A DNA stretch of 64,000 nt from an uncultured delta proteobacterium (GTDB taxonomy: Bacteria; Desulfobacterota; Binatia; Binatales; Binataceae), in NCBI GenBank assembly GCA_963842085.1, contig CAWJET010000001.1:1225565-1289564 (forward strand). The letters run 5' to 3'. The number at the start of each line of letters is the position of its first letter. Positions within the stretch are counted from its first letter, which is position 1. The notes below the pieces were generated by a model. That model made no database searches and had not been told where the DNA came from. It saw only the letters and a list, made by a program, of their open reading frames with translations. The position numbers and the translations under genes were made by a program. Below, piece after piece: positions 2,714-21,940 of this stretch.

Positions 2714-2729
2714 TTGGACTTTGGTCCGA
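2714..2729. promoter_or_regulatory. TTGGAC-N4-GTCCGA element copy
   Basis: TTGGACTTTGGTCCGA, 55 bp upstream of the CDS start at 2659. Confidence 0.45.
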
Positions 2730-2759
2730 TCCCTCCCTCAAAAGAGAATTGGTTCCTCC

Positions 2760-3665
2760 TCATAGCTCCACTTGCGGCAAAAGCAGACTTACTCCAAATC
2801 TCAGGGTGAATTGCTCAGTCTGAGGGTCAAACTGCCGATAGACCATGCATTCGCTGGAGACCGATGTATCGATTGCGTAGCCTTCGCCGAATTTCCAGAC
2901 TTTCCCAAATCCCGCGCTCAGCGGCATCTCGGTTGAAGTCTTGTGACGGTAGTTGATTTTCCAAGTCGCGTCGCTCGATTTCAGATACCATCCATGACCT
3001 AGCTGATAGGACAGGATTGGTTGTATCTGAAGCGAGCTGACCGGAACCGAATGCGACGATGAGTAGGCGAACGACGTCGCCTGCTGAAAGAGACCAGCAA
3101 TTTGCAGGCTCGCAATGCCCCGGTAACCGAAGGCCCAGGCTGGCCCCATCTGCCAAGCCCCTTTGCCGGTGAACTGACTCGTGGAGGTGGGAAACACGAA
3201 ATATGGTCCGATTCCCCATCGGAAGCGCGTTTCGTTCACGTTCGGCCAAGGCATCACAAACAGGTCGAGAAGTTGGAAGTCATCGAGCGCAGTGGTGGTT
3301 GACGCGCCTTTGTTGCGAGCAACGGTGACGATTTGAATACTCGGCCGGATGAGTTGCTCGAGCGGCGTGAACAATTGTGGGCGTACTGCGAAGAGTGGCC
3401 GGAACTGCAGTGTGTTCGGCTGCGCATTCGTACCGAACTCCGCCGGCGTGTAAATGTCCTGGATCTTGAACTGAGTCAGACTCGCAGTCGGATCGTTTAC
3501 CTTCTCGGCCAGGGATTCATCGGCGCTACTCGCAGTGGTGGTTTGCTGGGCGAGACTGATCGAACACGCCCCCAGTAGGACGAGAAGCGCGGCGCCGGTA
3601 ACAATAATTCGCCACCGGTGCCGCGTGGTGTGATAACAAACGACGCCACGCGTGAGATCTATCAC
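2760..3665 (-). CDS. Putative outer-membrane beta-barrel protein, paralog of 1694..2659
   Basis: 301 aa. Signal peptide RWRIIVTGAALLVLLGACSISLAQ. Paralogous to the upstream gene. Confidence 0.55.
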   Translation of the reverse strand: MIDLTRGVVCYHTTRHRWRIIVTGAALLVLLGACSISLAQQTTTASSADESLAEKVNDPTASLTQFKIQDIYTPAEFGTNAQPNTLQFRPLFAVRPQLFTPLEQLIRPSIQIVTVARNKGASTTTALDDFQLLDLFVMPWPNVNETRFRWGIGPYFVFPTSTSQFTGKGAWQMGPAWAFGYRGIASLQIAGLFQQATSFAYSSSHSVPVSSLQIQPILSYQLGHGWYLKSSDATWKINYRHKTSTEMPLSAGFGKVWKFGEGYAIDTSVSSECMVYRQFDPQTEQFTLRFGVSLLLPQVEL

Positions 3666-3669
3666 GGTC

Positions 3670-4398
3670 CTATTGTCCTGCTGGCGTTCGTCCCTGCAGC
3701 TCGAGCAGACGAATCGTAATCCTGTGAACCCAGTAGTCCATAGCGGCCTTAGCGTCGCCCCACTGCCACTGCACCGCCTGGCTCATCGCCATCCCGCCGG
3801 CGCGCTGGTCGATCGCGCCCGCCAAGAACTGATTGGTCGATCCATCAGTCACCTTCATTTCGGCTTCGGCGGAACCCACGAATGCGTAACTGCCGGTCGC
3901 CAGCGACTGGATTGCATTGAGGGCTCGGGCCTGCGGAATTATCACCGACACCGTCCGTAGCGCCGGGGTCGCGGCGGTCGCGTTGACGATCGCGACTCGC
4001 AGCACAAGCACGCCCGGCCCCGGCTGGTCAACCAGCGTGAAATCCTTGGACAAACCTTCCTTGAGTTGGTTGTAGAAGTAGGCCCCTAGCATCTGTTGAT
4101 CAGACGCCGACACTGTCGTACTGGCGTCGTCCCAGAACTCGACCGGCTCCAGAAGAATCTTATTGTACTGGCTCCACTGTGCATTCGGGTTGACATACAC
4201 CATTGCGGCCTGGTTCCCGGTGCCGGGTTGCAGCAACGATGCATCCTGCCCGAAGAATCCGCTTATCACAGGAGCAGGCTGACCGCCCTCGACCTGCTGC
4301 ATGACGCCCGGCTTGCTCTCCACCGTTTGCGCGCATCCAGACATGAGCAGCCCGCAGAATAGAGCGGCAAGTACAGGCACTACAACTGAGACTTTCAT
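3670..4398 (-). CDS. Lipoprotein (DUF3313-like, uncertain)
   Basis: Start chosen at MKVSVVVPVLAALFCGLLMSGC (lipobox). The longer ORF to 4536 only translates the upstream palindromic element (MYWTKVQ). Confidence 0.55.
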   Translation of the reverse strand: MKVSVVVPVLAALFCGLLMSGCAQTVESKPGVMQQVEGGQPAPVISGFFGQDASLLQPGTGNQAAMVYVNPNAQWSQYNKILLEPVEFWDDASTTVSASDQQMLGAYFYNQLKEGLSKDFTLVDQPGPGVLVLRVAIVNATAATPALRTVSVIIPQARALNAIQSLATGSYAFVGSAEAEMKVTDGSTNQFLAGAIDQRAGGMAMSQAVQWQWGDAKAAMDYWVHRITIRLLELQGRTPAGQ

Positions 4399-4515
4399 AG
4401 AATGCGACCTCCCGCGATTATCTCGTTTCAGCGACAAGTCACTTGACTGGCTGCAACTCCGCCGGTCGCAACTCCGCCGACGACCAGTCTGGCGCGTCCA
4501 GTACTCGTAAGTAAA

Positions 4516-4531
4516 TTGGACCTTGGTCCAA
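4516..4531. promoter_or_regulatory. TTGGAC-N4-GTCCAA palindromic element
   Basis: TTGGACCTTGGTCCAA, 118 bp upstream of the lipoprotein start. One of at least 9 copies of this element. Confidence 0.5.
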
Positions 4532-4718
4532 TACAAACTTTCGCTTATATTTCTCTTTTGTTCTTCACCATCCGCGAACTGATAGCGAAGAATTATTGGC
4601 TGGAATGCGGTGTTGATCTCCTACTTCCTTTTTTACTGAGAAAGAAGTGCGATAGGCAGATGCGGCACCGGCCCTAAGTGCGTATATGAACGCAGACAAG
4701 TTGTGGACGAGCAAATCG

Positions 4719-5375
4719 CTACTCTGACAACTTGGCTTTTGCCCTTGAGAAGTCGTCGCCGACCGGACGAACACCAAGACGCTCCGCCATTGCCACGAGA
4801 CTGGCAAGCGAATCCGCCCGCATCTTTTCCATCACTCGCGCTCGATGAACCTTGATCGTCTTCTCGCCGGTTCCTAGCTCGTGACCGATCTGCTTATTGA
4901 GCAAACCACCGGTCACGAGAGCTAACACTTGCCGCTCGCGGGGAGTGAGAAGCTCGTATCGACGACGAAGTTCTTCAAGTTCAGCGTACGAGATTCTCTG
5001 TTTGCGGCTGCGTTCGGCGGAACGTCGAATCGCCGCGATCAGGTCTTTGTCATCGACTGGCTTCTCCAGGAAGTCCACTGCGCCAGACTGAATTGCCTTG
5101 ACGGTCATCGGGATGTCACCGTGACCTGTTATGAATACAACTGACAGATACGGCAGAGTCTTCGCCAACGTCTCCTGAAGTTCGAAGCCGTCTACGTCAG
5201 GCATTCGCACATCGCTGACAGCACAATCGAACTGATCGCGCTTGCTGTTTCCGAGAAACTCGCGTGCCGATGAAAAAGAAACTACTTGGATGCCGGCCGA
5301 CTTGATCAGTCGTGCTAATGAGGTGCGCGCTGATTCGTCATCATCTATTAGTGCGACTTTGATCGAAGCAGGCAT
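4719..5375 (-). CDS. Two-component response regulator, FixJ/NarL family (REC + LuxR HTH)
   Basis: 218 aa. Receiver D-D-K residues and a LuxR-type C-terminal HTH (..TPRERQVLALVTGGLLNKQIGHELGTGEKTIKVHR..). Confidence 0.85.
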   Translation of the reverse strand: MPASIKVALIDDDESARTSLARLIKSAGIQVVSFSSAREFLGNSKRDQFDCAVSDVRMPDVDGFELQETLAKTLPYLSVVFITGHGDIPMTVKAIQSGAVDFLEKPVDDKDLIAAIRRSAERSRKQRISYAELEELRRRYELLTPRERQVLALVTGGLLNKQIGHELGTGEKTIKVHRARVMEKMRADSLASLVAMAERLGVRPVGDDFSRAKAKLSE

Positions 5376-5390
5376 CGTACCCGACTCGAA

Positions 5391-6725
5391 TCAGGCGTGA
5401 CTTCCGATACTCGGTCCAGTCGGTAACGTGAACTCAAGCGTTGCGCCACGGTCCGTATTCTGCGTCGCCCAGACCCGGCCACCGTGGTTCTCGACGATTG
5501 AACGAACGATGGCGAGCCCCATTCCCATTCCGGTCGACTTGGTCGTGAAGAAGGGGTCGAACAGACGAGTCATAACTTTGGGGTCAATGCCCTTGCCCGA
5601 ATCCCGGACCGAGATATGCATATGGCCAGGTTCGTTGAGACCGGCACAAATGACGACGTCGCGCGCCCCCCCGGCCTCGCACACAGAATCGAATGCGTTG
5701 AGGACCAAATTCAAAACGGCTTGCGTCAATTCGGTCTTGTTCCCCAGCACCGTTGGCAGCGAGTCGGGCACTTCGATCGACAAAGAGATGTCTTTCATTC
5801 TCGCGTCGGCGCTCACGATGCGATTGACGTCCAGCAGGAGCTCTCTGACATCGACGGGAGATGTTTTCGCTTCACCTCGTCGAAAAGTCGCGCGAACATT
5901 TCGGACGATTTCGACCGCTCTGGCATCGTCGCGGATGATATCGTCCAGCGCGCTATCGACTTCGGTCAGATCTGGAGTTTTGGAAGCGAGGAGTCGCCGC
6001 GCGGCCCTCGCATTGTTCAGGATTGCGCCGAGCGGTTGATTCAACTCGTGCGCCAGCGAGGCGGTCAGCTCTCCCATCGTCACAACTTGTGAAACCTGAC
6101 GCAATTCCTCCTCCAGGAGGCGATGTTCCGCGAAGGCGAGCTTTCGCTCGAGGGCGTTTCCAACGATCTCGGCGACCAGTTTCAGACGCTGGACCTCTTT
6201 CTGAGTCCACGCTCTTTCCGCCCAACTGGTGAACGACATAGAGCCGACGACCGCTCCGCTGATCTTCAATGGGATGCTCACGTGAGCCTTGATACCATGA
6301 AGACGCGCTGTGGCCACGTCGTCGGAGGCTTCAGGTGGAAGTTCTTCAACGTGCGAGAATATGACAATTTCACCAGCGAGGACCTTGGCGGCGAGCCAAG
6401 GAAACGACTGAGTGCTGTTAACCCTCGTCCCCAAGAACGGTGTCGTACTTCCGTTTCGCGCCGCCTGATGCGTGATGTACAAAGCACCGTCGACCGGGTC
6501 CAGTTGCGTCACTATGCCCCGATCGACCTGCATCGAAAGCACGATCGCTTGAAGCCATCGCTCTATTTCGCCATCGATCTCCTCGACCGATACGCGGATG
6601 AAGGTGGAGGATAAATCCCCCAGCAGCTTCTCGAAATCTACGACTTCCGGGTTCGGAGCGGCGTATGCGGGTGAATCGGTCTCTGTCGTACAGACTTCTT
6701 CTGCTCTCTCGAAGCGATTAACCAT
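5391..6725 (-). CDS. Sensor histidine kinase with GAF domain
   Basis: 444 aa. H-box [14 protein letters not shown] and a HATPase_c C-terminus (..[22 protein letters not shown]..). N-terminal GAF-like region. Confidence 0.85.
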
Positions 6726-6813
6726 AGGGTTCAGCGCCGCCTCGATGCGCGGTCTACCGAGCGGGCATCCTTCGTGTTGGCTTCACTGGCTCTTATACGC
6801 CAGATCCACTTCT

Positions 6814-7287
6814 TCAGGAAAGAGCGAGAGCACGGGCAATTGCCCCGAGCAGCGGCTCCTCGTCGAATGGCTTGAACAGGACTGCCACCGCGTCCGACTG
6901 CGCGGCCAGCGAGCGAATCCGGGCGTCGGTTCGTCCGGTTATTAGTATGGTGGGCAGGCCGTGTCCTGAACCTTTCAGAACCTCACACATCTCGATTCCG
7001 TTCATTTCAGGCATGTCGATGTCGACGACCATGCAGGCGTTAGATCTCGGTGTCTCGCTTGCGAGTAATTCAGACGGACCATTGAACGTCTGGACTAGAA
7101 AACCAGAAGCAGAAATCAGCCTCTTCAACGAGCGAAGGACGGAAGGATCATCATCCACCACCAGCACGGTTGCCGCGATCGTTGTGTCGGTCACTTCTGT
7201 CTCTGGAGCGATTGGCTCGGCACGTTTGCGCGCTCGCTCAGGGGGGACCGCGGCCCCCTTCCTGGCCATACTTGTTGCAATTTTCAT
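6814..7287 (-). CDS. Single-domain (CheY-like) response regulator
   Basis: 157 aa, receiver domain only (VLVVDDDPSV.. / ..VVDIDMPEMNG..). Confidence 0.75.
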   Translation of the reverse strand: MKIATSMARKGAAVPPERARKRAEPIAPETEVTDTTIAATVLVVDDDPSVLRSLKRLISASGFLVQTFNGPSELLASETPRSNACMVVDIDMPEMNGIEMCEVLKGSGHGLPTILITGRTDARIRSLAAQSDAVAVLFKPFDEEPLLGAIARALALS

Positions 7288-7384
7288 TTCAGATTCATCT
7301 GCGGCCTTCTCTTGATACGCGGAGCGGTAATCTTGGACGCTGGCTCCCGCCTCTATTCTGTTACGAACGTGTGAATCAGAGCAA

Positions 7385-7400
7385 TTGGACCAAAGTCCAA
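7385..7400. promoter_or_regulatory. TTGGAC-N4-GTCCAA element copy
   Basis: TTGGACCAAAGTCCAA, ~90 bp upstream of the receiver gene start. Confidence 0.5.
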
Positions 7401-7487
7401 TATGGCCGATTCTCCACGAAGTCTCGTGTCAGGGCTGGGACCTCGCGACTTCGGCAATCGAGGTAACAGGAAAGTGCGCCTCCAACT

Positions 7488-8276
7488 CTATTGCGACGGT
7501 ACTCCGCCTGCCGATGAGTGAACTTCACCGCCATCCGCAATGGCGTGGACGGCGGCCGCTCGGGGGAGACTGACGGCCGCCGTCTCGCCAGTGGCAACCT
7601 TGCTTGAGTTGCCCAAGATCTCCAGATTCTTACGCGCGGGCTCATAGTCCGGCACGTCGCGTACGAGATCACGCCATACGAGCGACGCGCTGGCAGTCTT
7701 TCCCTCCTGAGCGTAGATAACACCTAGCAGGTTGCTTGCGTCCGGTTGCTCAGCATTCAAGCGCAGCGCGGCCAGTGTCTCGTGCTCTGCATCGGTCAGC
7801 ATTCCACGCTGTGCCTCGACGAGGGCAAGATTGAAATGTGATTCGGAGTGTTCGCCACCGAGAAAAACCGCGTGTCGCAAACTATCCGTCGCGACGTCCA
7901 GGTCGCCATTTTCGAGCTGAGCCAGCCCTAGGTTCAGGAATAAATCCCAATTCATCAGTCCAAGCGCAGCCGCGCGCTGATACTCACTGACTTCCGCGGT
8001 CCTGTCGCCGACCATTCCCAGGGCAAAACCCAGATGGTAATGAGCGAGCGCGTTGTCCGGATGCTTGCGCACGATTTCCACGTGACGACGAATCGCCTCT
8101 GAGTAGTCTTCGATGCCAAGGGAGTAATCAGCGCCGACATCGCAGACTTGCTGCTCAGCTCCACCCGCGAATACGAAGTTCGGGATCCACACTGAGAGCA
8201 GCAGCATCGTTGCCGTAATTGTTACCAGCGCGATAGTTCGCACCTTCCGCTCCTCGGCTGACTTGCCACTCGACAT
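7488..8276 (-). CDS. TPR-repeat protein with N-terminal membrane anchor
   Basis: 262 aa. N-terminal TM helix, then TPR-like AxxY/HYxLG repeats. Confidence 0.6.
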   Translation of the reverse strand: MSSGKSAEERKVRTIALVTITATMLLLSVWIPNFVFAGGAEQQVCDVGADYSLGIEDYSEAIRRHVEIVRKHPDNALAHYHLGFALGMVGDRTAEVSEYQRAAALGLMNWDLFLNLGLAQLENGDLDVATDSLRHAVFLGGEHSESHFNLALVEAQRGMLTDAEHETLAALRLNAEQPDASNLLGVIYAQEGKTASASLVWRDLVRDVPDYEPARKNLEILGNSSKVATGETAAVSLPRAAAVHAIADGGEVHSSAGGVPSQ

Positions 8277-8301: not shown

Positions 8302-8347
8302 TTGGACGTTGGTCTAATGTACTTAAGTCCATTGGACTAAGGTCCAA
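8302..8347. promoter_or_regulatory. Two TTGGAC-N4-GTCYAA elements in a divergent intergenic region
   Basis: TTGGACGTTGGTCTAA (8302-8317) and TTGGACTAAGGTCCAA (8332-8347), between the divergent genes at 8276 and 8475. Confidence 0.5.
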
Positions 8348-8474: not shown

Positions 8475-8915
8475 ATGAAAAACAGGCTGCAACTTCTGGC
8501 GATCGCCGCCGCAATCACTGTTGCAGGATGCTCTGAGTCCGCGATCAAGCCTCAAGCGCGCTGCGAACTTATGACCGCGCAGATGTGTTCGCGCGCCGCG
8601 GAGTCGCAATTGCGCGATGGCACTCTTGCCGTCAGCTACATATTTCAGCCAGAGGATGCGCGGGTAGTTCCATTTGTTGTACCTGTATTTGAGAAAAACG
8701 GTACCTTGGCTGCGGAAGTAGATTGCTACGCCAGCACCGATACTCATACTTATTCGATAGTCCGATCAAACCTCGCGATTCCGCCAGCATCTCAGGAATC
8801 GGTCGACTTTCTTAGAAATCAACACTTATGCTCCGACAGCGGATCGTACGCCGACGATAGAGACCCACTTGTCGAGACGGCATCAACTCTGCCACTAGCC
8901 TCACAACGAAAATAA
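8475..8915 (+). CDS. Hypothetical lipoprotein
   Basis: Signal peptide with lipobox (..ITVAGCSES). Confidence 0.5.
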   Translation: MKNRLQLLAIAAAITVAGCSESAIKPQARCELMTAQMCSRAAESQLRDGTLAVSYIFQPEDARVVPFVVPVFEKNGTLAAEVDCYASTDTHTYSIVRSNLAIPPASQESVDFLRNQHLCSDSGSYADDRDPLVETASTLPLASQRK

Positions 8916-8970
8916 TGGTTCTCGGGCCAACCACATGTTTCAGCACCATACCAGTACACAGGAGAACGCG

Positions 8971-9318
8971 ATGCCGATTCGATACGCCTTGATCGGGCTC
9001 ATCGCTCTACTCACGGTTTCGGGGTGCGCTCCCAGTCAGCAACAAATGCTTAATAACTCCCAGGCGATGGCCGTCCAAACGGCCGTCAACCGCGGACAGT
9101 TCGACCTGCAATGCCGTTCCGCAACGGGAACAGCCATTTCCCGTGGAGTCGTCCAACCTGCATTGCAAGGTCCTTGGGTGAACGGGATCCAACCTGCCGA
9201 ATTCACCGTAGGCGTCGAGGGTTGCCGTAGGCGCAAGAGCTATATCGTCGTGTGCCCTGAGGGTGGCGGCGGGTGCTTTGCGGCTGGTCCCGGACCGTTT
9301 TATCCAGACTGGCAATAG
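8971..9318 (+). CDS. Hypothetical lipoprotein
   Basis: Start at MPIRYALIGL.. preceded by AGGAGA. Lipobox LTVSGC. Confidence 0.5.
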   Translation: MPIRYALIGLIALLTVSGCAPSQQQMLNNSQAMAVQTAVNRGQFDLQCRSATGTAISRGVVQPALQGPWVNGIQPAEFTVGVEGCRRRKSYIVVCPEGGGGCFAAGPGPFYPDWQ

Positions 9319-9397
9319 CAGCGGAAGGCTACTGCTGAGCGTTGACGGAGCACCTCAGGGCATTGAAATCCGGCGAAAAATGGGAGAAGGGACCTAA

Positions 9398-10159
9398 ATG
9401 AGAACGCTCAGGATTGTAACTCTCGGCCTCGTGCTGCTTGCCTCGGGATCGGCTCGCGCCCAGGGCGTCGTACTGCCGCTGCCGCCCCAGGACCAGCAAA
9501 GGATAACCGCACAGCTCGGACCGGGTGTCGTGGGCATCGCATTACCCAGCCAGCCAATCAGCGATCCCAGCGTCTTCTTTCCACTTCAAGCCAAAGCGCT
9601 GACCTACCAGGTCATGGCCGGCCCAAATGCCGGCAACACTCAGTCTCTGGGACTCTTCAAGACACGGCGTCCAAGCGGGGCGTCTGCATGGCGGTTTCAA
9701 TTATCGCCGTCGCTCGCTGGGTTCCTTCGTCAGAGCGCGGAGGGCGATATCATAATGCCTGCCGTGAGCGATGCCGGCGAGGGTGTGGTTGTGGTCACTA
9801 CGCCTCCTAATCCATTCGTGCCCAAGGGCATGCAGCCGGGCGAGACGCGGACCTACTCGCAGCGAGTCTCGGTAAATTACCTGGACGATCCATCGGACCA
9901 GAAATATTCCGGCTCGGTCACCGGAACTTATACTTATGTCGGCACCTATCAAGTCACTGTGCCCGCGGGTACGTTCCCGGCGGTGCTGTTTCGCGTTCAT
10001 TGTGATGGCAAGGTCGGGCCTGCTCACACGGTTAACACTGGCTACAACTTTTTTGCGCCGGGCGTCGGCATGGTCGCCATGATCTTGCAAGAAGACGTGA
10101 CGGCTTTCTGGATCTTCAACATCGATAGCACCACCGGCAAGGTGCTGATGTCGAATTGA
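9398..10159 (+). CDS. Hypothetical secreted protein
   Basis: 253 aa. Signal peptide ..SGSARAQG. RBS GGGAGAAGGG. Confidence 0.55.
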   Translation: MRTLRIVTLGLVLLASGSARAQGVVLPLPPQDQQRITAQLGPGVVGIALPSQPISDPSVFFPLQAKALTYQVMAGPNAGNTQSLGLFKTRRPSGASAWRFQLSPSLAGFLRQSAEGDIIMPAVSDAGEGVVVVTTPPNPFVPKGMQPGETRTYSQRVSVNYLDDPSDQKYSGSVTGTYTYVGTYQVTVPAGTFPAVLFRVHCDGKVGPAHTVNTGYNFFAPGVGMVAMILQEDVTAFWIFNIDSTTGKVLMSN

Positions 10160-10486
10160 AATGAGGGCGAACAGTCTGCACAAGAACAAAACTGCATCGA
10201 AAATCTGTTCAGCCGAGATGCGAGATGGCGCGGCGGGTGCGGATTTGGCAGGGGAGGCGAAATGATCATGAGATGGACCGCGGCTGGAGTTCTGGAAAGC
10301 CGAGCTCAACTTCCGCAAGGTCGCCGGCTTTGGCGCGCTCGAGAGGCTCGACACCGCCCTGCGCGCTCATGATGCCGCGATCAATCCAGGAGTTGATAAT
10401 CGAAGGCAGGCCAACTAAATTATCCAGCCGCTACTCAATTCCAACAGCGAATGGGACATCGCCCACGATTGAGGGCGCTACGTATT

Positions 10487-10753
10487 ATGCTTGGGTTCAA
10501 CCTGGACATTTGGGACTATGCGACGTTTGTCGCCATTTTCATCCAGGCCGCCGCTGCCGTTGTAGTGCTCGTTTTGCTTGCGGGATTGCCCGGTCGGATC
10601 GCGATCGGGGGGCATCATCCTGAAGCAGAAGCAGGTAAAATCATGGGCTGGGCAGGGTTTCTAGCCGCAGTTCAGTGGATCCAGGCCTTCATCTGGGCGT
10701 TCAAACCGACCGAAGGGTGGACATTCGACGCTTTCCTTCCGAAGAGCGAATAG
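10487..10753 (+). CDS. DUF3302-like small membrane protein
   Basis: TM helix then LPGRIA..HPEAEA..GW motif typical of DUF3302. Start at MLGFNLDIW chosen. Confidence 0.5.
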   Translation: MLGFNLDIWDYATFVAIFIQAAAAVVVLVLLAGLPGRIAIGGHHPEAEAGKIMGWAGFLAAVQWIQAFIWAFKPTEGWTFDAFLPKSE

Positions 10754-11288: not shown

Positions 11289-11289
11289 G

Positions 11290-13595: not shown

Positions 13596-13858
13596 ACGTT
13601 TTTTCCGAGCAGGTCCTTCAGCGCCGCGTTGTCCAGCATCGACTCCGCCAGCAGCTTCTTCAGCCGCCGGTTCTCATCCTCCAGCGACTTCAGGCGGCGC
13701 GCCTCGGATACGTCGAGCCCGCCATACTTCGCTTTCCACTTGTAAAAGGTCGCGCTTGAGATCCCGTGGCGGCGGCCGACCTCCTCGGTCTTCGCCCCCG
13801 CCTCATGGTCGCGCAGCACCCCGATGATCTGCTCCGCGCTGAATCGGCTGCCTTTCAT
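13592..13858 (-). CDS. IS3-family transposase OrfA (HTH)
   Basis: 88 aa. ..GISSATFYKWKAKYGG.. plus a leucine-zipper-like tail, typical of IS3 OrfA. Confidence 0.85.
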   Translation of the reverse strand: MKGSRFSAEQIIGVLRDHEAGAKTEEVGRRHGISSATFYKWKAKYGGLDVSEARRLKSLEDENRRLKKLLAESMLDNAALKDLLGKNV

Positions 13859-14303: not shown

Positions 14304-16805
14304 CTAGTCCTTCGCGCGGGCCACCGCGTCCTCAATGGCCGGCATGTTCTTGCGATCCTGATCCGTGTACTGCGCCGGGCCCAGGTTGAAGGTCAGCTTG
14401 TCGATCTTGCCCGTGAACTTGAACGGACAATCATAACGATACTCGACGAGCGCAACCCCGGTTAGTGTATCCAACCCGACGTCGAAGTCTTCGTCTTCGG
14501 GGAACGTGATGGGAGTGGTGTGATCCATGTGCTTCTTATCCACTTCCTTGCCGTCCACCGATAGCACTCCCGTGCCGCCCTTGCCGAGGCCGGGGCCGTC
14601 GAGCTTGAAGTCGAACACGATCGTGTGCTCGCCGGCGCTCAGTTCCGGCCCTTCCCAAATCGTGCGCTTGAGATCGAGCAGATTGTAAAGGAACACGACC
14701 TTCCCGTGGCGGACTCCCATCTCACCCTTGGAGAGGAATAAGCCGTAGCCGCCGAAGCGACCGCCCTCGGTCACGATCATGCCTTCGGCGCCGCCCTCGG
14801 GGATGTCGACATTGGCGGTGATGGTGTAGTCCTTGTCCAGGATGTTCGGGGCGCTGCTCGGCGGCACGCCGCTCAGTTCGCCTGAATAGGTGAATGTGGT
14901 CCGTCCGGCTGTGGCGCTCGGGCGCTGCGTCAGGAAGCGAGCGAGGGTCGAGTTGTCGAGCGGGAGCACATCGTATTTCTTAGCCTGCTCATAGAAAACA
15001 TCCTGCAGTTGCTTGAGCTTGTCCGGCATCTTGTCGGCCAGGTCGTTGTACTCGGTGACATCTACATTGAGGTTGTAGAGTTCCCACTTGTAACCGGTAA
15101 TCACATCCGGCGGCGTGGCGGTGCTCAGCTCCCACGGAAGACTTACCGGCGTCGTCACCGCTATCCATCCGTCCTGGTAGATCGCGCGGTTCCCGAGCAT
15201 CTCGAAATATTGCGTCGTGTGGCGGGTTGGTGCGTCGGCGTTCTTCTTGTCCCACGTGTACACCATGCTCACGCCTTCAATCGGGCGCTGCTTGATGCCG
15301 TCGATTGTGTCGGGAGCCGGGATGCCGGTCACCTCGAGGATCGTGGGCACGATGTCGATGACGTGAGAAAACTGGCGGCGGATGCCACCGACGTCCGTGA
15401 TGTGGCCGGGCCATGACATGGCCATGCCATTGGCCGTCCCGCCGCGATGCGACGCGATCTGCTTCACCCACTTGAACGGGGTATCCATCGCCCACGCCCA
15501 GCCGGCCGCATAGAGGGGAAAGGTCCGATCCGATCCCCAGAAGTCGTACCAGAGAAACTGGTCCTTGACCGGCACGGCGACGCCGTTGAAGGTTGTGAAC
15601 TCGTTTGGCGTACCGTTGAGCATACCCTCGGCGCTCGCGCCGTTGTCGCCGCTTATATAGATGATCAAGGTGTTGTCGAGCTCGCCGAGGTCGTCGACGG
15701 CCTGGATGACGCGGCCGATTTCGTGGTCGGTGTATGCGAGGAACGCCGCATAGACGTCGGCCTGCTTGATGTACAGTTTTTTCTGCTCGAGGCTCAGGGT
15801 ATCCCACGCCGGAAGATCCTTCGGCCACGGCGTCAACTTGGCATCGGCGGGCATGATGCCAAGCCGTTTCTGGTTGGCAAAGATGGTATCGCGCAATTTG
15901 TTCCAGCCACCGTCGAACAGGTTCTGATCGCTGATCTTTTTAATCCACTCGGGCGTCGGATGATGGGGCGCGTGAGTACCGCCCGGAACGTAGTAGACGA
16001 AGAACGGCTTGCCGGGAGCGATCTCCTTGAGCTGCCTCATGTACTGGATGGCGTCGTCAGCCATCGCGGTGGTGAGATTCCAACCAGGGTGCCCCTGGAA
16101 GGGGTAGATGGCCGTCGTGTTGCGGAACAGGTTCGGTTGCCACTGGCTGGTGTCGCCGCCGATGAAGCCGTAGAAATACTCGAAGCCCATCCCGATGGGC
16201 CATTGGTCGAATGGCCCGGCCTGGCTCGCCTGGTAAAAGGGCGTGTTGTGGTCCTTGCCGAACCACGCGGTCGCGTATCCGTTTTCCTTGAGGATCTCGC
16301 CGATGGTGCCGGTATCCTTCCTTATAATCGAATCGTACCCCGGGAATCCGGTTGCCGCCTCGCCAACAACCCCAAAGCCGGCCACGTGATGATTTCGTCC
16401 CGTGATCAAGGCGGCGCGGGTGGGTGAGCATAACGACGTAGTATGGAACTGCGTGTACCGCAGCCCGCTGTTCGCAATGCGATCCAACGCCGGAGTCTCG
16501 ATGACGCCGCCAAAGGTGCTAGGCGCGCCGAAGCCTACGTCGTCGGTCATGATGAGCAGCACGTTCGGCGCACCCTTGGGCGGCACAATGCGCGGCGGCC
16601 ACCAAGGCGTTGACTCCGAGGCTCTTCCCTTGATCACCCCGCCGAATTTCGGATCGGGCGGCGGAAGTTGATTTCCGGGGATGGTCGTGGTGGCGTTAGG
16701 TGAACCCAACTCACCTGTGACTTCCTGCGCGAGGCAAGAGGATGAAGGAAGCGTAAAGGCTGCGATGCAAAGCGCTACGGCGACAACATGTCTGAGTGCA
16801 ATCAT
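14304..16805 (-). CDS. Arylsulfatase (type I sulfatase, large C-terminal extension)
   Basis: Sulfatase signature CSPTRAALITGRNHH (formylglycine motif). Start at MIALRHVVAVAL.. (signal peptide) with RBS AAGGAAAA. The longer ORF to 16973 lacks an RBS. Confidence 0.85.
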   Translation of the reverse strand: MIALRHVVAVALCIAAFTLPSSSCLAQEVTGELGSPNATTTIPGNQLPPPDPKFGGVIKGRASESTPWWPPRIVPPKGAPNVLLIMTDDVGFGAPSTFGGVIETPALDRIANSGLRYTQFHTTSLCSPTRAALITGRNHHVAGFGVVGEAATGFPGYDSIIRKDTGTIGEILKENGYATAWFGKDHNTPFYQASQAGPFDQWPIGMGFEYFYGFIGGDTSQWQPNLFRNTTAIYPFQGHPGWNLTTAMADDAIQYMRQLKEIAPGKPFFVYYVPGGTHAPHHPTPEWIKKISDQNLFDGGWNKLRDTIFANQKRLGIMPADAKLTPWPKDLPAWDTLSLEQKKLYIKQADVYAAFLAYTDHEIGRVIQAVDDLGELDNTLIIYISGDNGASAEGMLNGTPNEFTTFNGVAVPVKDQFLWYDFWGSDRTFPLYAAGWAWAMDTPFKWVKQIASHRGGTANGMAMSWPGHITDVGGIRRQFSHVIDIVPTILEVTGIPAPDTIDGIKQRPIEGVSMVYTWDKKNADAPTRHTTQYFEMLGNRAIYQDGWIAVTTPVSLPWELSTATPPDVITGYKWELYNLNVDVTEYNDLADKMPDKLKQLQDVFYEQAKKYDVLPLDNSTLARFLTQRPSATAGRTTFTYSGELSGVPPSSAPNILDKDYTITANVDIPEGGAEGMIVTEGGRFGGYGLFLSKGEMGVRHGKVVFLYNLLDLKRTIWEGPELSAGEHTIVFDFKLDGPGLGKGGTGVLSVDGKEVDKKHMDHTTPITFPEDEDFDVGLDTLTGVALVEYRYDCPFKFTGKIDKLTFNLGPAQYTDQDRKNMPAIEDAVARAKD

Positions 16806-16851
16806 GCGGGGGTTTTTCCTTCTAGACTTGGCAACAAGCTTCTCGTTGGGC

Positions 16852-17751
16852 TTACTCCCGACACTCGTTGAGGGGCGGGACCTTTCCGTTGAGCTGGACG
16901 GCCAGAGCGGCAGCCGTGCCGACAGGGGCGCCGACATAGATCGTCGAACCCGTTTTGTTAGTCGCGATGGCACCTTTGCAATATTTGAAGAAGGACTTGT
17001 CGCATGGGTAAGGCCCGAGGATCTGGTAGCTTTGGGCGTTGTCTCCAGTGGACTGGGTGATTGGGCAGGAACAGATGATCTGTCCTTTCGGCACCGGTTT
17101 GTCGAAGCCCGGGAACGTCGTCTCCTCGGTGCTTCTGAAGCATAGTCCGCCGTCGCACTGAGCGTAGGCGCCGCCCTCCTCGCCCTGGCAGGTGTAGACC
17201 GCGCCGCCTCCCTGAGGAGAGGCGATCGACTCAGGCAGGCTGTAGGTGCTGACCATGTATTTGTTGGCGGCGCCCGCGGCGTTGATCGAACAGACGTCTT
17301 CGTCCTTGCCCATCGGAAACGGCAGGCTGATGCTGTCGCCGTGCTTCACGTCGCACTGGCAGTAAGCGACGCCGTCGAACACATTGCAGCGCGCCGCGGC
17401 GCAAAGCGCGTAAGTCTGATCCTTGCAGATCTTGAATTGCGCGCCGGCCATCGCGTCGAGGAGTTTATCGAGGCAACCTTTGGAAAGCTGGCCCATCTTG
17501 TTCTGTACACAGCTCTTGATGCGTCCGACATCGGGCAGCACGTCCGAGCAGAGACTCCAGACGTCGCCGCCGCATGCTCGGACGATGCCCAAATCCTTGC
17601 TGAAGCCCTCCTGCGCCATCGAGGGGGCGGCCACGCCCACTATCAACATGAGCGCAACGGTCAACCCTGCGCCCGTCAGCCGCGTCCTCGCGGAACAAAG
17701 TCCTGACCACGTAGCCCCTTCCGCTTTCGATTTTTGGTCTCGATGCAGCAT
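16852..17751 (-). CDS. Cysteine-rich secreted hypothetical protein
   Basis: 299 aa. Signal peptide and ~22 Cys. RBS GGAAGGGA. Confidence 0.55.
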   Translation of the reverse strand: MLHRDQKSKAEGATWSGLCSARTRLTGAGLTVALMLIVGVAAPSMAQEGFSKDLGIVRACGGDVWSLCSDVLPDVGRIKSCVQNKMGQLSKGCLDKLLDAMAGAQFKICKDQTYALCAAARCNVFDGVAYCQCDVKHGDSISLPFPMGKDEDVCSINAAGAANKYMVSTYSLPESIASPQGGGAVYTCQGEEGGAYAQCDGGLCFRSTEETTFPGFDKPVPKGQIICSCPITQSTGDNAQSYQILGPYPCDKSFFKYCKGAIATNKTGSTIYVGAPVGTAAALAVQLNGKVPPLNECRE

Positions 17752-17803
17752 TGAATTCCCTTCCGTCCTTTTGGATACCTTTTAGACCCTTCGCTGTTAT
17801 TTC

Positions 17804-18370
17804 CTAGGGAGTCTGGTCCTGGATCTCAATGTTGATGCGGCGATTCTGAGCCCGCCCTTCCGGGGTGTCATTTGACGCGATCGGACGATATTGTCCGAAT
17901 GCCACCGCTGAAAGCTGATTTGGATCGAGCCCCTGAGCCACGAGGTAGCGAACCACGGAGATCGCACGGGCGGCGGAGAGGTTCCAGTTCGTTGGGAAAC
18001 GCTCGGAGAGCGGCGGCAGGATCGGCAAGTTGTCCGTGTAGCCCTGGATGACAATCTGTTTGCCGGAAACCCCCTGCAACGCCGGTACGATCTTATTCAA
18101 CTCCTGCTGTCCCTGCTGGTGTAGTTCCCATCCACCCTCGGGGAACAAAATGGCGTTAACCATCGTCACCTCCAATCGGTTCTGCAACTGTCTGACCTTT
18201 ACCTGATCGGAATTAACTTCAGAGTTGAGGCTCTGGTTGAGTTGCTGATAGGTCGAATTCAGATATTGGAGTTGCTGAGCCTGTTGGACCTCCTGATTGT
18301 ACTGTTGTTGGGGAACGCATCCTGTTATCAGCAATGAAGCGAGCAATGGAGCTAGTAGCTTGAGTTTCAT
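17804..18370 (-). CDS. OmpA-family lipoprotein (OmpA C-terminal peptidoglycan-binding domain)
   Basis: Lipobox LITGC. Q/N-rich coiled region. C-terminus ..GYTDN..NWNLSAARAISVVRYLVAQG.. Confidence 0.8.
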   Translation of the reverse strand: MKLKLLAPLLASLLITGCVPQQQYNQEVQQAQQLQYLNSTYQQLNQSLNSEVNSDQVKVRQLQNRLEVTMVNAILFPEGGWELHQQGQQELNKIVPALQGVSGKQIVIQGYTDNLPILPPLSERFPTNWNLSAARAISVVRYLVAQGLDPNQLSAVAFGQYRPIASNDTPEGRAQNRRINIEIQDQTP

Positions 18371-18388
18371 CTGATCCTCAATCCGTCG

Positions 18389-19339
18389 TTACGGCTGCGA
18401 GACCATGTAAACGACCTGGCTGCCGCTGTAGAAGGGTTTGTAGTAAACCCCGTTTGCCATGTAGTAAGTGCTTCCGTTGATCGTGGTCTCGAAAGCGCCA
18501 GGTGGGAGAGAGTAAACAGTCGACCCCATCGCTGGAGGCCCGTACGGGGCGGGCTGGTATCCATAGGGTGGGTAGTTCTCGACCACAGTTGTCGTAGGTG
18601 CTTTTGCTTGCGCATTCGCGGTTAGCATCGACCCGACCGCCATACCTCCGACCGCCCCCAGAGCGGCCGCACCGAGTGCCTCGCCGGTGCTCGAGCCGCC
18701 ATCGCTGCAGCAGTCGTTATACGGGCCGTAGTAGCCTCCGCCTCCTCCGTTGTAATTGGTATCGCCTACGTTGTTGTTGACTGTGTTCATCGTCGAATTG
18801 TGCATCGACTTTTCGGTCTGTTCGTTGTTCGCTTGCAGCGAATTGGCTTCGTTGTACTTGGACTGCTGCTGGGCCGTCTGATTGGTATTGTACGTATTGT
18901 AAGCGTTGCCATTGCCCTTCTGGTATTCGCTGGACGCTTGCGAGCTGCTGTTGGGATGGAACTCGTTTGACGATGACCCAGAACTGCTACTCGGGTGCTG
19001 CCACGAGCTGGAACCACCAGATGAATGACCCATTGACGAGCTACCGCTATGTCCGAAGCTACCGCCGCCGAAGCCATCACCACCGAAGCCTTTGAAGCCT
19101 CCGCCGCCTCCACCGCCGTGGAACCCCCCGCCTCCTCCACCTCCGCCACCGCCAAAGCCGTGGAACCCTCCTCCGCCTCCTCCACCAAAGTGACCGCCGC
19201 CTCCTCCACCAAAGCGACCACCGCCGCCGCCAAACCTTGCAGATGCTTGTGGCGCGGCGGCCAGGGAGATCGCAACCGCCATCATCGTTGCAACTGTGAA
19301 TGCGCGAGCCGTTCGCATGCCGCATATCGTGGTAATCAT
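18389..19339 (-). CDS. Gly-rich / Ser-rich / N,Q-rich low-complexity secreted protein with conserved Tyr-rich C-terminus
   Basis: 316 aa. Signal peptide, (G)nF(H/K/R) repeats, prion-like N/Q tract. Start overlaps upstream stop (ATGA). Confidence 0.6.
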   Translation of the reverse strand: MITTICGMRTARAFTVATMMAVAISLAAAPQASARFGGGGGRFGGGGGGHFGGGGGGGFHGFGGGGGGGGGGFHGGGGGGGFKGFGGDGFGGGSFGHSGSSSMGHSSGGSSSWQHPSSSSGSSSNEFHPNSSSQASSEYQKGNGNAYNTYNTNQTAQQQSKYNEANSLQANNEQTEKSMHNSTMNTVNNNVGDTNYNGGGGGYYGPYNDCCSDGGSSTGEALGAAALGAVGGMAVGSMLTANAQAKAPTTTVVENYPPYGYQPAPYGPPAMGSTVYSLPPGAFETTINGSTYYMANGVYYKPFYSGSQVVYMVSQP

Positions 19340-20124
19340 GGCTTCGACTCCTTACCCGTCAGAAACTCAATGCGCTTGAAGTCCTTGGGCACATCTGCCC
19401 GAAAACGGCTCGCCGATATTTTTTTTGGAAATTTCCAATCTGAAAGGAGTGCAATGTACTCAGGCGATCCCGGCAAGCTCCTGTAGTTAATCACGACCTT
19501 GCGAGGGATTGGCTTTCCCGAGCGATCGAGCCAGAGTTGAAAATCGGCTTTTGGCGATGAAAGAGCGATGTGATCACATTCTATTCCATTGACGTCTCCT
19601 ATTCCGACGTATCCGCCATAGGTGGTTTCCTTGCGAAGCAACTTGCATGTATCGCTCGCGGCGAGGTCGGACAGAGGAATCGTGAGGTTGTTCATCTCCG
19701 CTACCCGATCCAGCATTCCATCGATGACTGAAGGCACCGCAAGGGTCGTATAGACCATGCGCGAGGGGTCGAGGATGGTTAAAGTGCCGTCGCTGTACCA
19801 AAGCTCCTTGGCGCCCAGGTCGCTCTGGTAATCGACGGCGAGCTCGTCCGGCCGTTGAACGGCGAAGTCCATGGCGCCTGCGAACTGAACCTTCACGTTG
19901 GGAGGCAGAACCTGATCGAACATGATTTCGGCGTGGAAGCTGAACGCGTCAGCCGAACTCAGCGCCTGGCATGCCTTGGTCAACAGCTTGTCCGCGTATG
20001 GTGCAATGCCACTCGGCCGGGCGCTGGATGTCGACGTCGGTTCGGCGGCGAATGTCACACAATAAGCGCCGAGCATCGCGGCAATCAAAAACCCGAGGTT
20101 GACGATAAATACTTTGCTACGCAT
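19336..20124 (-). CDS. Periplasmic LolA-fold/DUF2092-like protein (putative)
   Basis: 262 aa. Signal peptide. RBS AGGTAAGAGG. Confidence 0.5.
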   Translation of the reverse strand: MRSKVFIVNLGFLIAAMLGAYCVTFAAEPTSTSSARPSGIAPYADKLLTKACQALSSADAFSFHAEIMFDQVLPPNVKVQFAGAMDFAVQRPDELAVDYQSDLGAKELWYSDGTLTILDPSRMVYTTLAVPSVIDGMLDRVAEMNNLTIPLSDLAASDTCKLLRKETTYGGYVGIGDVNGIECDHIALSSPKADFQLWLDRSGKPIPRKVVINYRSLPGSPEYIALLSDWKFPKKISASRFRADVPKDFKRIEFLTGKESKP

Positions 20125-20203
20125 GTTCGCCTCTTACCTGGATCTGATTTCTGTTTCCTATGCTATCTGGAACAACTGTCGCAAATTACACAACCAAGAG
20201 ATA

Positions 20204-20219
20204 TTGGACTTTGGTCCAA
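20204..20219. promoter_or_regulatory. TTGGAC-N4-GTCCAA element copy
   Basis: TTGGACTTTGGTCCAA, 80 bp upstream of the operon 20124 -> 17804. Confidence 0.5.
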
Positions 20220-20411
20220 CACCTTATAGCTCTCATAGGTCGCTGCGGAGGGGCAACGGCCGCCGTTCGGGCCAAAGCAGCCTCGCGTTGGCTGCCTAAA
20301 GACGATAGGTGGGCATGCAAGCACAGCGGCGGAAGCAGCCGTGGCAACGAACAGGAGAGCGGATATCTCCATCGTCTTTCTCGATAAGTGCGTTTCCCAT
20401 TCAAAGCATTT

Positions 20412-21134
20412 TTAAGACGACCACCCCTGTCGATTGTAGTAGTTGACTACCTGCTGAACGATCTGATCGGTGGTCTTATCCACGAGATAACCGGTTGAAG
20501 AGGTAATGTTCTTGACGCCTCCGGCAGCGAGATTCACCCCCAGCGACGCGGCCGCGGTGGCGCCGCCCGCAGCTGCTCCGGCTGGTCCGGTGATTCCTGC
20601 ACCGGGCATGTATCCGCTGTTAGCGTTCGTAGCGAAGTCAATTATCTCGGTCGAGCCTTGATCGGTCTTTTGAATAACCTGAACTACTGTGTCGACTTTC
20701 GATGCGCCCGCGCCAAGGCCGATCACCATTCGACGTAGCCGGTTTCCTTGGCTGATGTCCGTGAACTGGCCATCCAATATGAGAACATTGTTGCCGGTCG
20801 GAGGCACACCCCGCTGCAGGCAGGTAGTATTGATACCCTTTCCCGTCAGGTTCGCCGCGACCTGGACGCAGATATTATGTGCCGTCTGGCGGGCGATCTC
20901 TTGCTCTTGGGCAGTCTGGTTGTCATCCGTCATGTTTCGGTAGGCTACCTGGAAGATGCTGGAGTTGAGTGAGACATCCGAAACACTTACGGCGAATGGA
21001 TAAACGACCACTGCGGAGGGTGGTGTGGCCGAGATCGGCGCTGCAGAACTCTCTTGTGTCACATGCGCACCCGCGCATCCGAACGTCGCCAAGGCTAACA
21101 GCACATATGTTCGACTAAGAATTTGAAACCTCAT
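20412..21134 (-). CDS. Hypothetical lipoprotein (DUF4410-like?)
   Basis: Lipobox TFGCAG. RBS AAAGAGGAA. Confidence 0.5.
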   Translation of the reverse strand: MRFQILSRTYVLLALATFGCAGAHVTQESSAAPISATPPSAVVVYPFAVSVSDVSLNSSIFQVAYRNMTDDNQTAQEQEIARQTAHNICVQVAANLTGKGINTTCLQRGVPPTGNNVLILDGQFTDISQGNRLRRMVIGLGAGASKVDTVVQVIQKTDQGSTEIIDFATNANSGYMPGAGITGPAGAAAGGATAAASLGVNLAAGGVKNITSSTGYLVDKTTDQIVQQVVNYYNRQGWSS

Positions 21135-21216
21135 GGTATTCCTCTTTTAAGCTGGAGTTGATTCCTTCTAGTCGTTTTCTTGTCCGAGTTTTGCATATTG
21201 AACTGGCTCTCCACAA

Positions 21217-21254
21217 TTGGACTTTGGTCCAATTGGTCCCTGGTCCTACTGGTG
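21217..21254. promoter_or_regulatory. TTGGAC-N4-GTCCAA element plus degenerate GGTCC-N3-GTCCTACTGG half-copy
   Basis: TTGGACTTTGGTCCAA then TTGGTCCCTGGTCCTACTGG, 82 bp upstream of the start at 21134. Upstream context TGTCCGAGTTTTGCATATTGAAC is shared with the site at 21866. Confidence 0.5.
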
Positions 21255-21444
21255 CCACGCTCACTTAGTCTGCTGCAGTGCCGGCGGCTTCTACGACCTG
21301 TCGAGCGCGGTCTTTTGAGGTCAATAGAAACGCATCACCATTGAAATTCTCTTCTGAGCCATCGCCTTCATTCCACTAAAATGGAGACAGCTTGGGCCTG
21401 AATGTCAGGACCATCGCGTCAACTCAGGGCCAGTCGCGCCTCTG

Positions 21445-21768
21445 CTAATTGGCAAAGCCGCTCTGGACGAAGACGCTACCTTTCGGTCCGATTCGGACGC
21501 ATTCGGCCTGGCCGTTATAGTCGGGACTGCAAATGGGCTTGTCGACGGACGGACACTTGTACAAACCCGTGTCGATCTGCTGGCACGTGTTGATATTGAA
21601 ATGTAACTCGGTCTTCGCCAGTGAGGCTTGCTGAGCCGCCGATGGTTCAGACGACGAGCACCCGCCAAGCGCGAGCAGCCCAACAACCGCGATCGTTGAA
21701 ATCGCACGCTTGGTAATTCTTCGACCGTTCGAGACTTGATTCCAATTTAGCACAATAGCACCTCCCAT
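21445..21768 (-). CDS. Small hypothetical lipoprotein
   Basis: 107 aa, lipobox LALGGCSS. Start uncertain. Confidence 0.45.
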   Translation of the reverse strand: MGGAIVLNWNQVSNGRRITKRAISTIAVVGLLALGGCSSSEPSAAQQASLAKTELHFNINTCQQIDTGLYKCPSVDKPICSPDYNGQAECVRIGPKGSVFVQSGFAN

Positions 21769-21902
21769 CAGTTGATCTGTGTATCAGGACTGCGCGGCAG
21801 ACTTTTCCTTCAGTTGTAGAATACGATTCCATATTTCCTGTGCCGGTAATCCATATCCTCTTCACTGTCCGAGTTTTTGGCAGATTGAACCGCGCAAAAC
21901 AA

Positions 21903-21940
21903 TTGGACTTTGGTCCATTGGACCTTGGTCCTATTGGTCC
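21903..21940. promoter_or_regulatory. Tandem overlapping TTGGAC-N4-GTCCWW elements
   Basis: TTGGACTTTGGTCCATTGGACCTTGGTCCTATTGGTCC, preceded by the shared context TGTCCGAGTTTTTGGCAGATTGAAC. Confidence 0.5.

Follow-up and report, generated by a model that had tools for sequence, protein, structure and literature searches.

A predicted operator and regulon of a FixJ/StyR-family response regulator in an uncultured Binataceae bacterium

Introduction

Response regulators of the StyR/TodT type, which carry valine at residue 172, recognise ATAAAC-N4-GTTTAT, and K175, V176 and H179 are their proposed contacts (PMC5874301). Phosphorylated StyR (StyR-P) binds STY2, at about -40, as a dimer and activates; further StyR sites are used for repression (PMC2442086). 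FixJ sites are imperfect palindromes of 16-18 bp near -35 to -69 (PMC4999443), and FixT, a single-domain receiver induced by FixLJ, inhibits FixL (PMC7078487). In DosR, K179 and K182 contact bases (PMC4082495), and the LOV-HTH protein EL222 binds RGNCYWWRGNCY (PMC10521638). Here we analyse a stretch of 64,000 nucleotides (the window; positions 1,225,565 to 1,289,564 of contig CAWJET010000001.1, assembly GCA_963842085.1) from an uncultured delta proteobacterium of the GTDB family Binataceae, in which a palindromic element, TTGGAC-N4-GTCCAA, recurs around the genes of a two-component system.

We consider this dyad very probably the operator of the FixJ/StyR-family response regulator encoded among its copies, which by sequence would act as a class-II-like activator of the regulon described below. 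An earlier annotation made from the letters alone (the sequence-only reading) had proposed the operator of a dimeric transcription factor that defines a regulon, and not a repetitive extragenic palindromic (REP) repeat. That proposal is upheld by the confinement of the dyad to intergenic DNA, its phasing with promoters, its recurrence beside orthologous regulators in other phyla, its co-variation with the recognition helix, the recurrence of target families and conservation at orthologous promoters. The operator is of the ordinary gene-switch kind and implies no new type of mechanism.

Results

Copies of the palindrome. Five positions in the window (4516, 7385, 8332, 20204 and 21217) match the exact pattern TTGGACNNNNGTCCAA. 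Expected counts were taken from 100 dinucleotide-preserving shuffles of the window, which gave 0.00 expected exact matches and not one shuffle with a match (0/100). Allowing up to two mismatches to TTGGAC-N4-GTCCAA gave 11 matches against 1.8 expected, a count that 0/100 shuffles reached. The near copies at 2714, 8302, 21903 and 21918 carry one mismatch each, and that at 21233 carries two and directly abuts 21217. All five exact and five near copies lie between 2.7 and 22 kb; the match at 57191 (two mismatches or fewer) is likely due to chance. Our motif scan found all nine copy coordinates of the sequence-only reading correct. Copies 8302 and 8332 are spaced by 30 bp, and 21903 and 21918 share one base. 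At 22881-22896 the window reads CTGGACCGAAGTCCGG, where only the GGAC-N4-GTCC core matches.

The spacer had been treated as four free positions, mostly TTTG or CTTG. It is in fact constrained, with YTTR or YAAR in all copies except 8302 (GTTG). Most copies are also flanked by A and T, giving a fuller element (A)TTGGAC-YWWR-GTCCAA(T).

Every window copy is intergenic, with 0 inside called genes, and the half of the window that holds the mobile-element genes contains 0 copies, in agreement with the absence from both noted earlier. Copy 4516 falls within the longest open reading frame (ORF) extension of the DUF3313 gene; the public assembly gene call starts at 4398. Long ORFs containing WTKVQ or WTLVQ had been dismissed as artefacts of translating the element, which follows from the genetic code: TGG ACC AAA GTC CAA translates as W-T-K-V-Q. 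The pair 8302/8332 lies in a divergent intergenic region, where public calls (L001) place a plus-strand operon from 8475. Judged by spacer orientation and spacing, 8332 faces this operon; the statement that all copies lie upstream of minus-strand genes thus stands for the other sites and fails for 8332. The promoters of the DUF4410 and 107-aa lipoprotein genes (21100-21260 and 21735-21950) are paralogous over about 95 nt, a stretch that takes in a weak site (distal), a strong one (proximal) and a shared leader ..GTTCAAT.TGC.AAAACTCGGACA.

The two-component system. The response regulator has the recognition helix E171-K172-T173-I174-K175-V176-H177-R178 and the phospho-acceptor D55. Its closest solved structures are StyR (1yio, E 1e-47) and FixJ (5xso). 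It is far closer to these than to DevR (E 3e-16), so the system is not a DosR/DevR regulon, which would have a NarL-branch regulator and a HisKA_3 kinase with tandem GAF domains. The kinase is predicted to be soluble: it has no hydrophobic segment, its highest Kyte-Doolittle value over 19 residues being 1.36. In PDB and NCBIfam matches its core is nearest to FixL kinase modules. The pair is not FixLJ proper, since Pfam found no PAS domain in the kinase where a haem-PAS domain would be expected. Both proteins also miss the NCBIfam equivalog cut-offs (205.8 against 255 bits for FixJ and 179.5 against 850 bits for FixL).

Two candidate binders had been named in the sequence-only reading. The FixJ/NarL-type regulator at 4719-5375 stands. 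The receiver-only protein is ruled out, since a domain scan found no DNA-binding domain in it, and it appears instead as the most conserved target.

Recurrence in other genomes and metagenomes. We drew two independent samples. A genome collection scanned with the regulator protein gave 80 loci (1.3 Mb) with regulators 47-55% identical to that of the window. About 0.08 exact dyads would be expected in 1.3 Mb. Exact dyads adjoin the regulator gene in L060, a metagenome-assembled genome (MAG) labelled delta proteobacterium, and in L076 (Blastocatellia), and a dyad with one mismatch lies 30 nt past the regulator gene in L015 (Acidobacteriaceae). The exact match in L031 was rejected as chance, as it lies inside a coding region and has an atypical spacer. 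A literature search for the motif returned no earlier description among the papers searched, only primer-type matches.

A metagenome collection scanned with the 18-mer ATTGGACYTTRGTCCAAT gave at least 120 contigs, mostly short; among those listed, 16 hold two exact 16-mer copies. Genes were called with a home-made codon-usage caller trained on long ORFs. Exact copies among the matches listed were intergenic in 119 of 136 cases, in the opening 150 nt of a longest-ORF extension in 14 and deep in ORFs in 3; of random positions drawn from these contigs, 54% were deep in ORFs. Half of the metagenomic copies fell inside ORFs when these were picked greedily by length. That picker was discarded: the dyad is stop-free in all frames, and antisense ORFs are long in GC-rich DNA.

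Among the contigs listed (at least 120), a FixJ-like regulator occurs in 27, a receiver in 26, a related kinase in 15 and a related sulfatase in 8, and the gene order kinase, regulator, motif, receiver-only recurs many times. In these motif-selected contigs, every one of the 15 regulators that lie no more than 1.1 kb from a motif copy has E-K-T/N in the recognition helix (K-type). This helix is found in only about 13% of the regulator-selected genome set, most members of which have E-I/V-T. An orthologous regulator with receiver (REC) and GerE domains lies near the motif in L015, L060, L076 and at least 15 metagenome contigs.

Co-variation of box and recognition helix. We scored the intergenic region of 44 genome loci in which a receiver-only gene follows the regulator gene. 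GGAC-N4-GTCC was present at 5/5 loci with K-type regulators and at 0/39 with others. The non-K loci carry CTATAC-N4-GTATAG in 20 of 39 cases (two mismatches or fewer) or, in Bradyrhizobium, CAAAC-CTAA-GTATG. Half-site positions 3-4 thus read TA where residue 172 is I/V and GG where it is K, and the specificity of the box follows the recognition helix of the regulator; the 6-N4-6 inverted repeat with its AC-N4-GT centre is present in all copies. Going by this co-variation, Lys172, at the start of the recognition helix, probably selects the GG of the half-site.

The sister box CTATAC-N4-GTATAG accompanies I or V at residue 172 in ten loci that we noted and in others. The Bradyrhizobium box stands at a fixed 17-23 nt after the HTH-coding region of the regulator gene. 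Since sister boxes also lie between regulator and receiver-only genes, the order kinase, regulator, box, receiver-only is general in the family. A more distant relative in L206 (regulator 76% identical) has E-R-T in place of E-K-T and may represent a third specificity flavour, as judged from its boxes; its receiver promoter has a degenerate site only.

This co-variation bears on whether the dyad could belong to some other transcription factor encoded elsewhere, its proximity to the FixJ-like gene being coincidental. Dyads of 5-N6-5 or 6-N4-6 centred near -42 are also typical of CRP/FNR class II sites, and the window encodes a second LuxR-type regulator. This is the NarL-type regulator (40816-41451) of a second two-component pair at 39707-41451, whose kinase is of the HisKA_3 type; the pair has no relation to the motif. 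We rejected this regulator as the binder on its NarL-like helix, SENTVKTH. CRP/FNR proteins are absent from the 25 commonest families behind the motif. Regulators adjoining the motif are K-type FixJ-like proteins in every case among the matches listed (the contigs having been chosen by motif), and the box changes to CTATAC when residue 172 is I or V. An unrelated binder is accordingly very unlikely.

Orthologous footprints. A protein search found close relatives of the regulator only in metagenomes and MAGs; an 87%-identical cluster is named Candidatus Binatus sp. (phylum Binatota) by NCBI. In loci L203 and L204, whose regulator has this 87% identity, the same target genes lie contiguously in a compact island free of insertion sequences (IS). 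Motif copies there precede the genes for TPR (a double site), REC, DUF3313, DUF4410, DUF2092 and OmpA proteins and three small genes. The sequence-only reading had suggested phylogenetic footprinting in relatives, and the outcome favours a functional site: the 200 nt upstream of five shared genes (TPR, REC, DUF3313, DUF4410 and DUF2092) are 41-61% identical between the window and L203, and the 16-mers within them are kept at 15-16 of 16 positions. Copies 4516, 7385, 20204 and the proximal 21217 correspond to 10794, 7975, 14930 and 12574 in L203. The double site 8302/8332 is kept in both L203 (7019/7049) and L206 (6985/7015), and the footprint at the REC promoter (the 7385 site) is likewise kept in L193. 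Compared with L203, the DUF4410 promoter of the window has a 19-nt insertion that separates the dyad from CAATATGC.

The whole regulon island may be duplicated or mobile, with two island versions perhaps on one 3.24-Mb contig. This suggestion is made because a conjugative element adjoins the island and because both versions may share one contig.

Promoter geometry. For promoter analysis, metagenomic sequences were oriented by their single downstream gene and made non-redundant (n=77). A -35-like hexamer, T(A/T)(T/G)ACA, directly abuts the downstream end of the dyad. A 'TA' follows at an offset of 23 nt in 41/77 promoters and 24 nt in 13/77 (together 54/77, 70%), against at most 6 at any other offset from 14 to 33. 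If the -10 occupies its standard place (-12 to -7), the dyad extends from about -51 to -36, with its centre near -43.5. The spacer reads YAAR in the direction of the gene in 57/77 promoters (p = 3e-5), an orientation bias that makes the site functionally asymmetric. In the window the -10 candidates are weaker, nAnnnT at offsets 21-25, with TATAAA at 2714 the exception.

Many of the metagenomic promoters (six contigs that we noted, and others) share TAGAAAGAnCTCAG 30-40 nt after the dyad, before unrelated genes. In it the -10 is followed, about 8-12 nt on, by a conserved CTCAG/TTAG; it may be a lineage-specific discriminator or start-site signature.

The same geometry makes it hard to read the dyad as a promoter element of an alternative sigma factor of the extracytoplasmic function (ECF) type. 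The -35 elements of such factors, GGAAC-like, resemble TGGAC, and ECF sigma genes are among the downstream genes in 2-3 contigs. The -10 'TA', however, lies 23-24 nt past the end of the dyad, a greater distance than a -35/-10 pair allows. Sigma elements do not show perfect two-fold symmetry, and co-variation with an HTH residue of a regulator has no place in such a model. We give this explanation almost no weight.

Little more can be said for a repeat of the REP or miniature inverted-repeat transposable element (MITE) type, an RNA hairpin or a terminator. The dyad is a perfect short palindrome restricted to intergenic DNA, a simple scan flagged two copies as terminator-like, and many copies stand directly past the stop codon of the regulator gene. 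REP and MITE elements are longer imperfect palindromes that sit mostly at gene 3' ends or between convergent genes and keep no fixed relation to promoters, whereas the dyad measures only 16-18 bp, precedes genes with an orientation preference, and is conserved beyond its own ends only as a phased -35 and -10. No consistent T-tract follows it. It is kept across phyla together with one regulator subfamily, and orthologous sites are retained amid diverging flanks. A repeat or terminator is therefore highly improbable.

Proposed mechanism. On the preferred reading, in which the dyad is the operator of the FixJ/StyR-family regulator, the soluble GAF kinase with its FixL-like core would phosphorylate the regulator on Asp55. 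The phosphorylated regulator would then dimerise, and its two GerE-type HTH domains would read the two TTGGAC half-sites. The dyad abuts a weak -35 hexamer and its predicted centre near -43.5, given by the -10 'TA' spacing, compares with about -40 for activating StyR-P. From these two positions we infer class-II-like activation: the bound dimer would most likely bring in RNA polymerase, in the manner of StyR at STY2. Double and overlapping sites would probably bind two dimers cooperatively. By analogy with FixT, the single-domain receiver, once induced, would probably act back on the kinase, as a FixT-like inhibitor or as a phosphate sink.

The same regulator on the same operator could instead repress, by blocking polymerase at the adjacent -35, and double and overlapping sites could form a repressive array; StyR itself uses extra sites for repression (PMC2442086). 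Yet the dyad is placed upstream of the core hexamers without any overlap, and its fixed spacing and orientation bias fit contact with polymerase. The -35 and -10 elements are weak, as expected of activator-dependent promoters, and none passes a sigma-70 scan. The closest characterised homolog activates from about -40 (PMC2442086). We regard repression as unlikely, although less so than the explanations dismissed above.

Several points weigh against the operator reading with activation. The gene calls depend on a home-made caller. The metagenome set was chosen by the motif, so that part of the conservation of flank and spacer follows from the choice itself; the downstream promoter, regulator linkage and target families do not. 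Four K-type genome loci show no GGAC-N4-GTCC in their available DNA, and in a fifth (L036) it lies only more than 1 kb from the regulator gene. L206 has variant boxes (3215, 6744 and 6985-7030), TTGTAC-N4-GTACAA and TGGTAC..GTCCAA, and the recognition code is thus incompletely worked out. The dyad directly abuts a -35-like hexamer, as repression would also have it. A scan for the strict sigma-70 consensus found no promoter at any window copy, an outcome that fits activator dependence and is not proof of it.

Target genes. Table 1 lists the predicted operator copies and the genes around them. At least eight transcription units in the window are preceded by a predicted operator: the operon of receiver, histidine kinase and response regulator (REC-HK-RR); the DUF3313, DUF4410 and 107-aa lipoproteins; the DUF2092/DUF6515/OmpA(/sulfatase) unit; the 321/301-aa family; the TPR gene; and the plus-strand operon, which is a probable divergent target. 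The 107-aa ORF has the lipobox LALGGC. DUF2092, DUF6515, OmpA, the 299-aa protein and the sulfatase possibly form one unit with DUF2092 first, the last two members being the presumed ones. No Pfam or NCBIfam family was found for the 321-aa and 301-aa proteins, which form an unnamed conserved family of the regulon and a putative outer-membrane family, and the 146-aa, 115-aa and 253-aa proteins of the plus-strand operon had no family match.

Table 1. Positions of predicted operator copies and of genes in the window
Feature	Position	Strand	Relation or basis
FadL-like porin, possibly co-transcribed	270-1550	-	Pfam/NCBIfam
321-aa (1694-2659) and 301-aa paralogs	1694-3665	-	Paralogy by clustering
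Operator copy TTGGACTTTGGTCCGA, 1 mismatch	2714-2729		54 nt upstream of 321-aa gene (1694-2659, -); TATAAA 22 nt downstream in gene direction
DUF3313 lipoprotein	3670-4398	-	Pfam/NCBIfam
Operator copy, exact	4516-4531		Between regulator gene stop and DUF3313 lipoprotein gene (start 4398)
Response regulator, REC + GerE/LuxR HTH, proposed binder	4719-5375	-	Pfam
Soluble sensor histidine kinase, GAF + HisKA (PF00512) + HATPase, single GAF	5391-6725	-	Pfam
Single-domain receiver, Asp91 phospho-acceptor kept	6814-7287	-	First gene of REC-HK-RR operon
Operator copy, exact	7385-7400		Upstream of REC-HK-RR operon (putative autoregulation)
TPR protein	7488-8243	-	Pfam; start from public gene call
Operator copy, 1 mismatch	8302-8317		Points to TPR gene (-)
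Operator copy, exact	8332-8347		Points to plus-strand operon 8475-10753 by the rule of YAAR in gene direction
Divergent operon: 146-aa, 115-aa and 253-aa proteins + DUF3302	8475-10753	+	Gene calls in L001
107-aa lipoprotein (21445-21768), DUF4410, DUF2092, DUF6515, OmpA-like, 299-aa protein without assignment, sulfatase	14304-21768	-	Pfam
Operator copy, exact	20204-20219		79 nt upstream of DUF2092 gene
Proximal exact copy (21217-21232) + abutting weak copy (21233-21248, 2 mismatches)	21217-21248		Upstream of DUF4410 lipoprotein gene
Two overlapping copies, 1 mismatch each	21903-21933		Upstream of 107-aa lipoprotein ORF (21445-21768)

We scanned with Pfam the 115 genes directly downstream of metagenomic motif copies. 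The receiver-only gene was the commonest (11/115) and is the most conserved target. Sulfatases followed with 3 and ECF sigma factors with 2-3, and there were two each of DUF2092, OmpA, HdeA, DUF1254, patatin, AI-2E transporter, DUF3309 and acyltransferase. Single matches include lysine/arginine decarboxylase, polyphosphate kinase and MlaE. Clustering showed that five of the families targeted in the window also stand immediately behind the motif in contigs unrelated to it, namely the receiver-only, sulfatase, OmpA-like, DUF2092 and 321/301-aa (2) families. Homologs of DUF2092, OmpA and sulfatase stand there in six contigs (L104, L105, L113, L123, L152 and L184) and 321-aa homologs in two (L142 and L188); another 321-aa homolog, in L149, lies about 2 kb from a copy.

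The sequence-only reading spoke of an envelope regulon and suggested a test for enrichment upstream of signal-peptide genes. Signal peptides were called with a crude heuristic. Its looser first version was uninformative (54% against 51% in controls), and a stricter one found signal-peptide-like N-termini in 31% of motif-downstream proteins against 16% of control genes, an enrichment of about 2-fold that lends weak support. The regulon is rich in envelope proteins and not exclusively so, as cytoplasmic and stress proteins are among the targets elsewhere; the label holds in the first part and is too narrow in the second.

Other features of the window. The island is split at 10965-13858 by insertion sequences: an rve_3 fragment, an IS110-family transposase (11332-12816) and an IS3-type HTH+rve pair (12852-13858). 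Genes of a conjugative or integrative element adjoin it at 25596-36712 and encode a TrwB-type coupling protein, a TrwC relaxase-helicase, a tyrosine integrase and two large serine recombinases. Further on (54617-62889), kdpA, kdpB and kdpC have behind them, in place of KdpD/KdpE, genes for a PAS histidine kinase and an NtrC-type (sigma-54-dependent) response regulator; upstream of the kdp genes stands an additional gene, of 337 aa, whose product has a partial KdpC domain.

Discussion

The analysis yields a concrete map of regulator, operator and targets in never-cultured bacteria, probably Candidatus Binatota, plus Acidobacteriota. It links one signalling pathway to DUF3313, DUF4410, DUF2092, DUF6515 and two unnamed families. 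For the very large FixJ/StyR family, the match between helix residue and half-site bases (I/V with TA, K with GG) amounts to a rule of specificity that can be put to the test. With its help regulons could be predicted from sequence, or orthogonal switches designed.

A broader view is that the K-type GAF-kinase/FixJ-like system and its box form an undescribed regulon across phyla (Binatota, Acidobacteriota and others) that remodels envelope and stress defences in response to an intracellular signal and has a portable recognition code. We put this forward tentatively, as a serious possibility that falls a little short of probable. If the code is true, helix position 172 as I/V, K or R would read TATAC, TGGAC or TGTAC.

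Comparison with known systems

The Dos box of DosR/DevR has the consensus TTSGGGACTWWAGTCCCSAA and, like the dyad, a GGAC-N4-GTCC core with a T/A-rich spacer. The helix E-K-T-[IV]-K aligns with E-K179-T-V-K182 of DosR, so that K172 and K175 align with K179 and K182 and Val176 replaces N183 (the numbering of the DosR sequence is self-consistent), and the partner kinases of both are GAF-domain sensors. DosR differs in belonging to the NarL branch, with HisKA_3 kinases that carry tandem GAF domains, whereas the kinase here combines HisKA with a single GAF. The Dos box, for its part, spans 20 bp and has GGGAC half-sites, and identity in the C-terminal domain is only 42% over 43 residues. The HTH of EL222 is the fourth-best PDB match (E 1e-10), and the inner 12 bp of every exact window copy fits RGNCYWWRGNCY, e.g. 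GGACC-AA-AGTCC. EL222 is, however, a one-component photoreceptor, and its consensus is degenerate and without the outer TT/AA.

By NCBIfam and PDB matches, FixL and FixJ of the alphaproteobacterial FixLJ systems are what the kinase core and the regulator resemble most. The receiver-only gene, the most conserved target here, recalls FixT. Unlike FixL, the kinase has a GAF domain in the place of haem-PAS. The operator sequence also differs, the site stands directly at many structural genes, and no FixK-type intermediate was seen here. In contrast to Caulobacter FixT, the receiver keeps its phospho-acceptor Asp and is without the 4-Cys motif reported for FixT (PMC7078487).

The StyR, TodT and TmoT boxes share with the dyad a 16-bp 6-N4-6 inverted repeat with an AC-N4-GT centre (PMC5874301). 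StyR is the best PDB match to the window regulator, with collinear numbering and identical K175 and V176, and it too has several sites per promoter (PMC2442086). The half-site here is TTGGAC and not ATAAAC; residue 172 is Lys where StyR has Val, and residue 179 is Ala where StyR has His. The kinase is a small soluble GAF protein, unlike the large double-kinases StyS and TodS. Where the aromatic-catabolism systems of Pseudomonas control one catabolic operon, the targets here are many envelope and stress genes, and IHF dependence is not evident here. The locus thus combines a distinct half-site within the StyR/TodT/FixJ operator class (6-N4-6) with a GAF-sensor system that has a conserved regulon in uncultured soil bacteria, a combination that is apparently undescribed.

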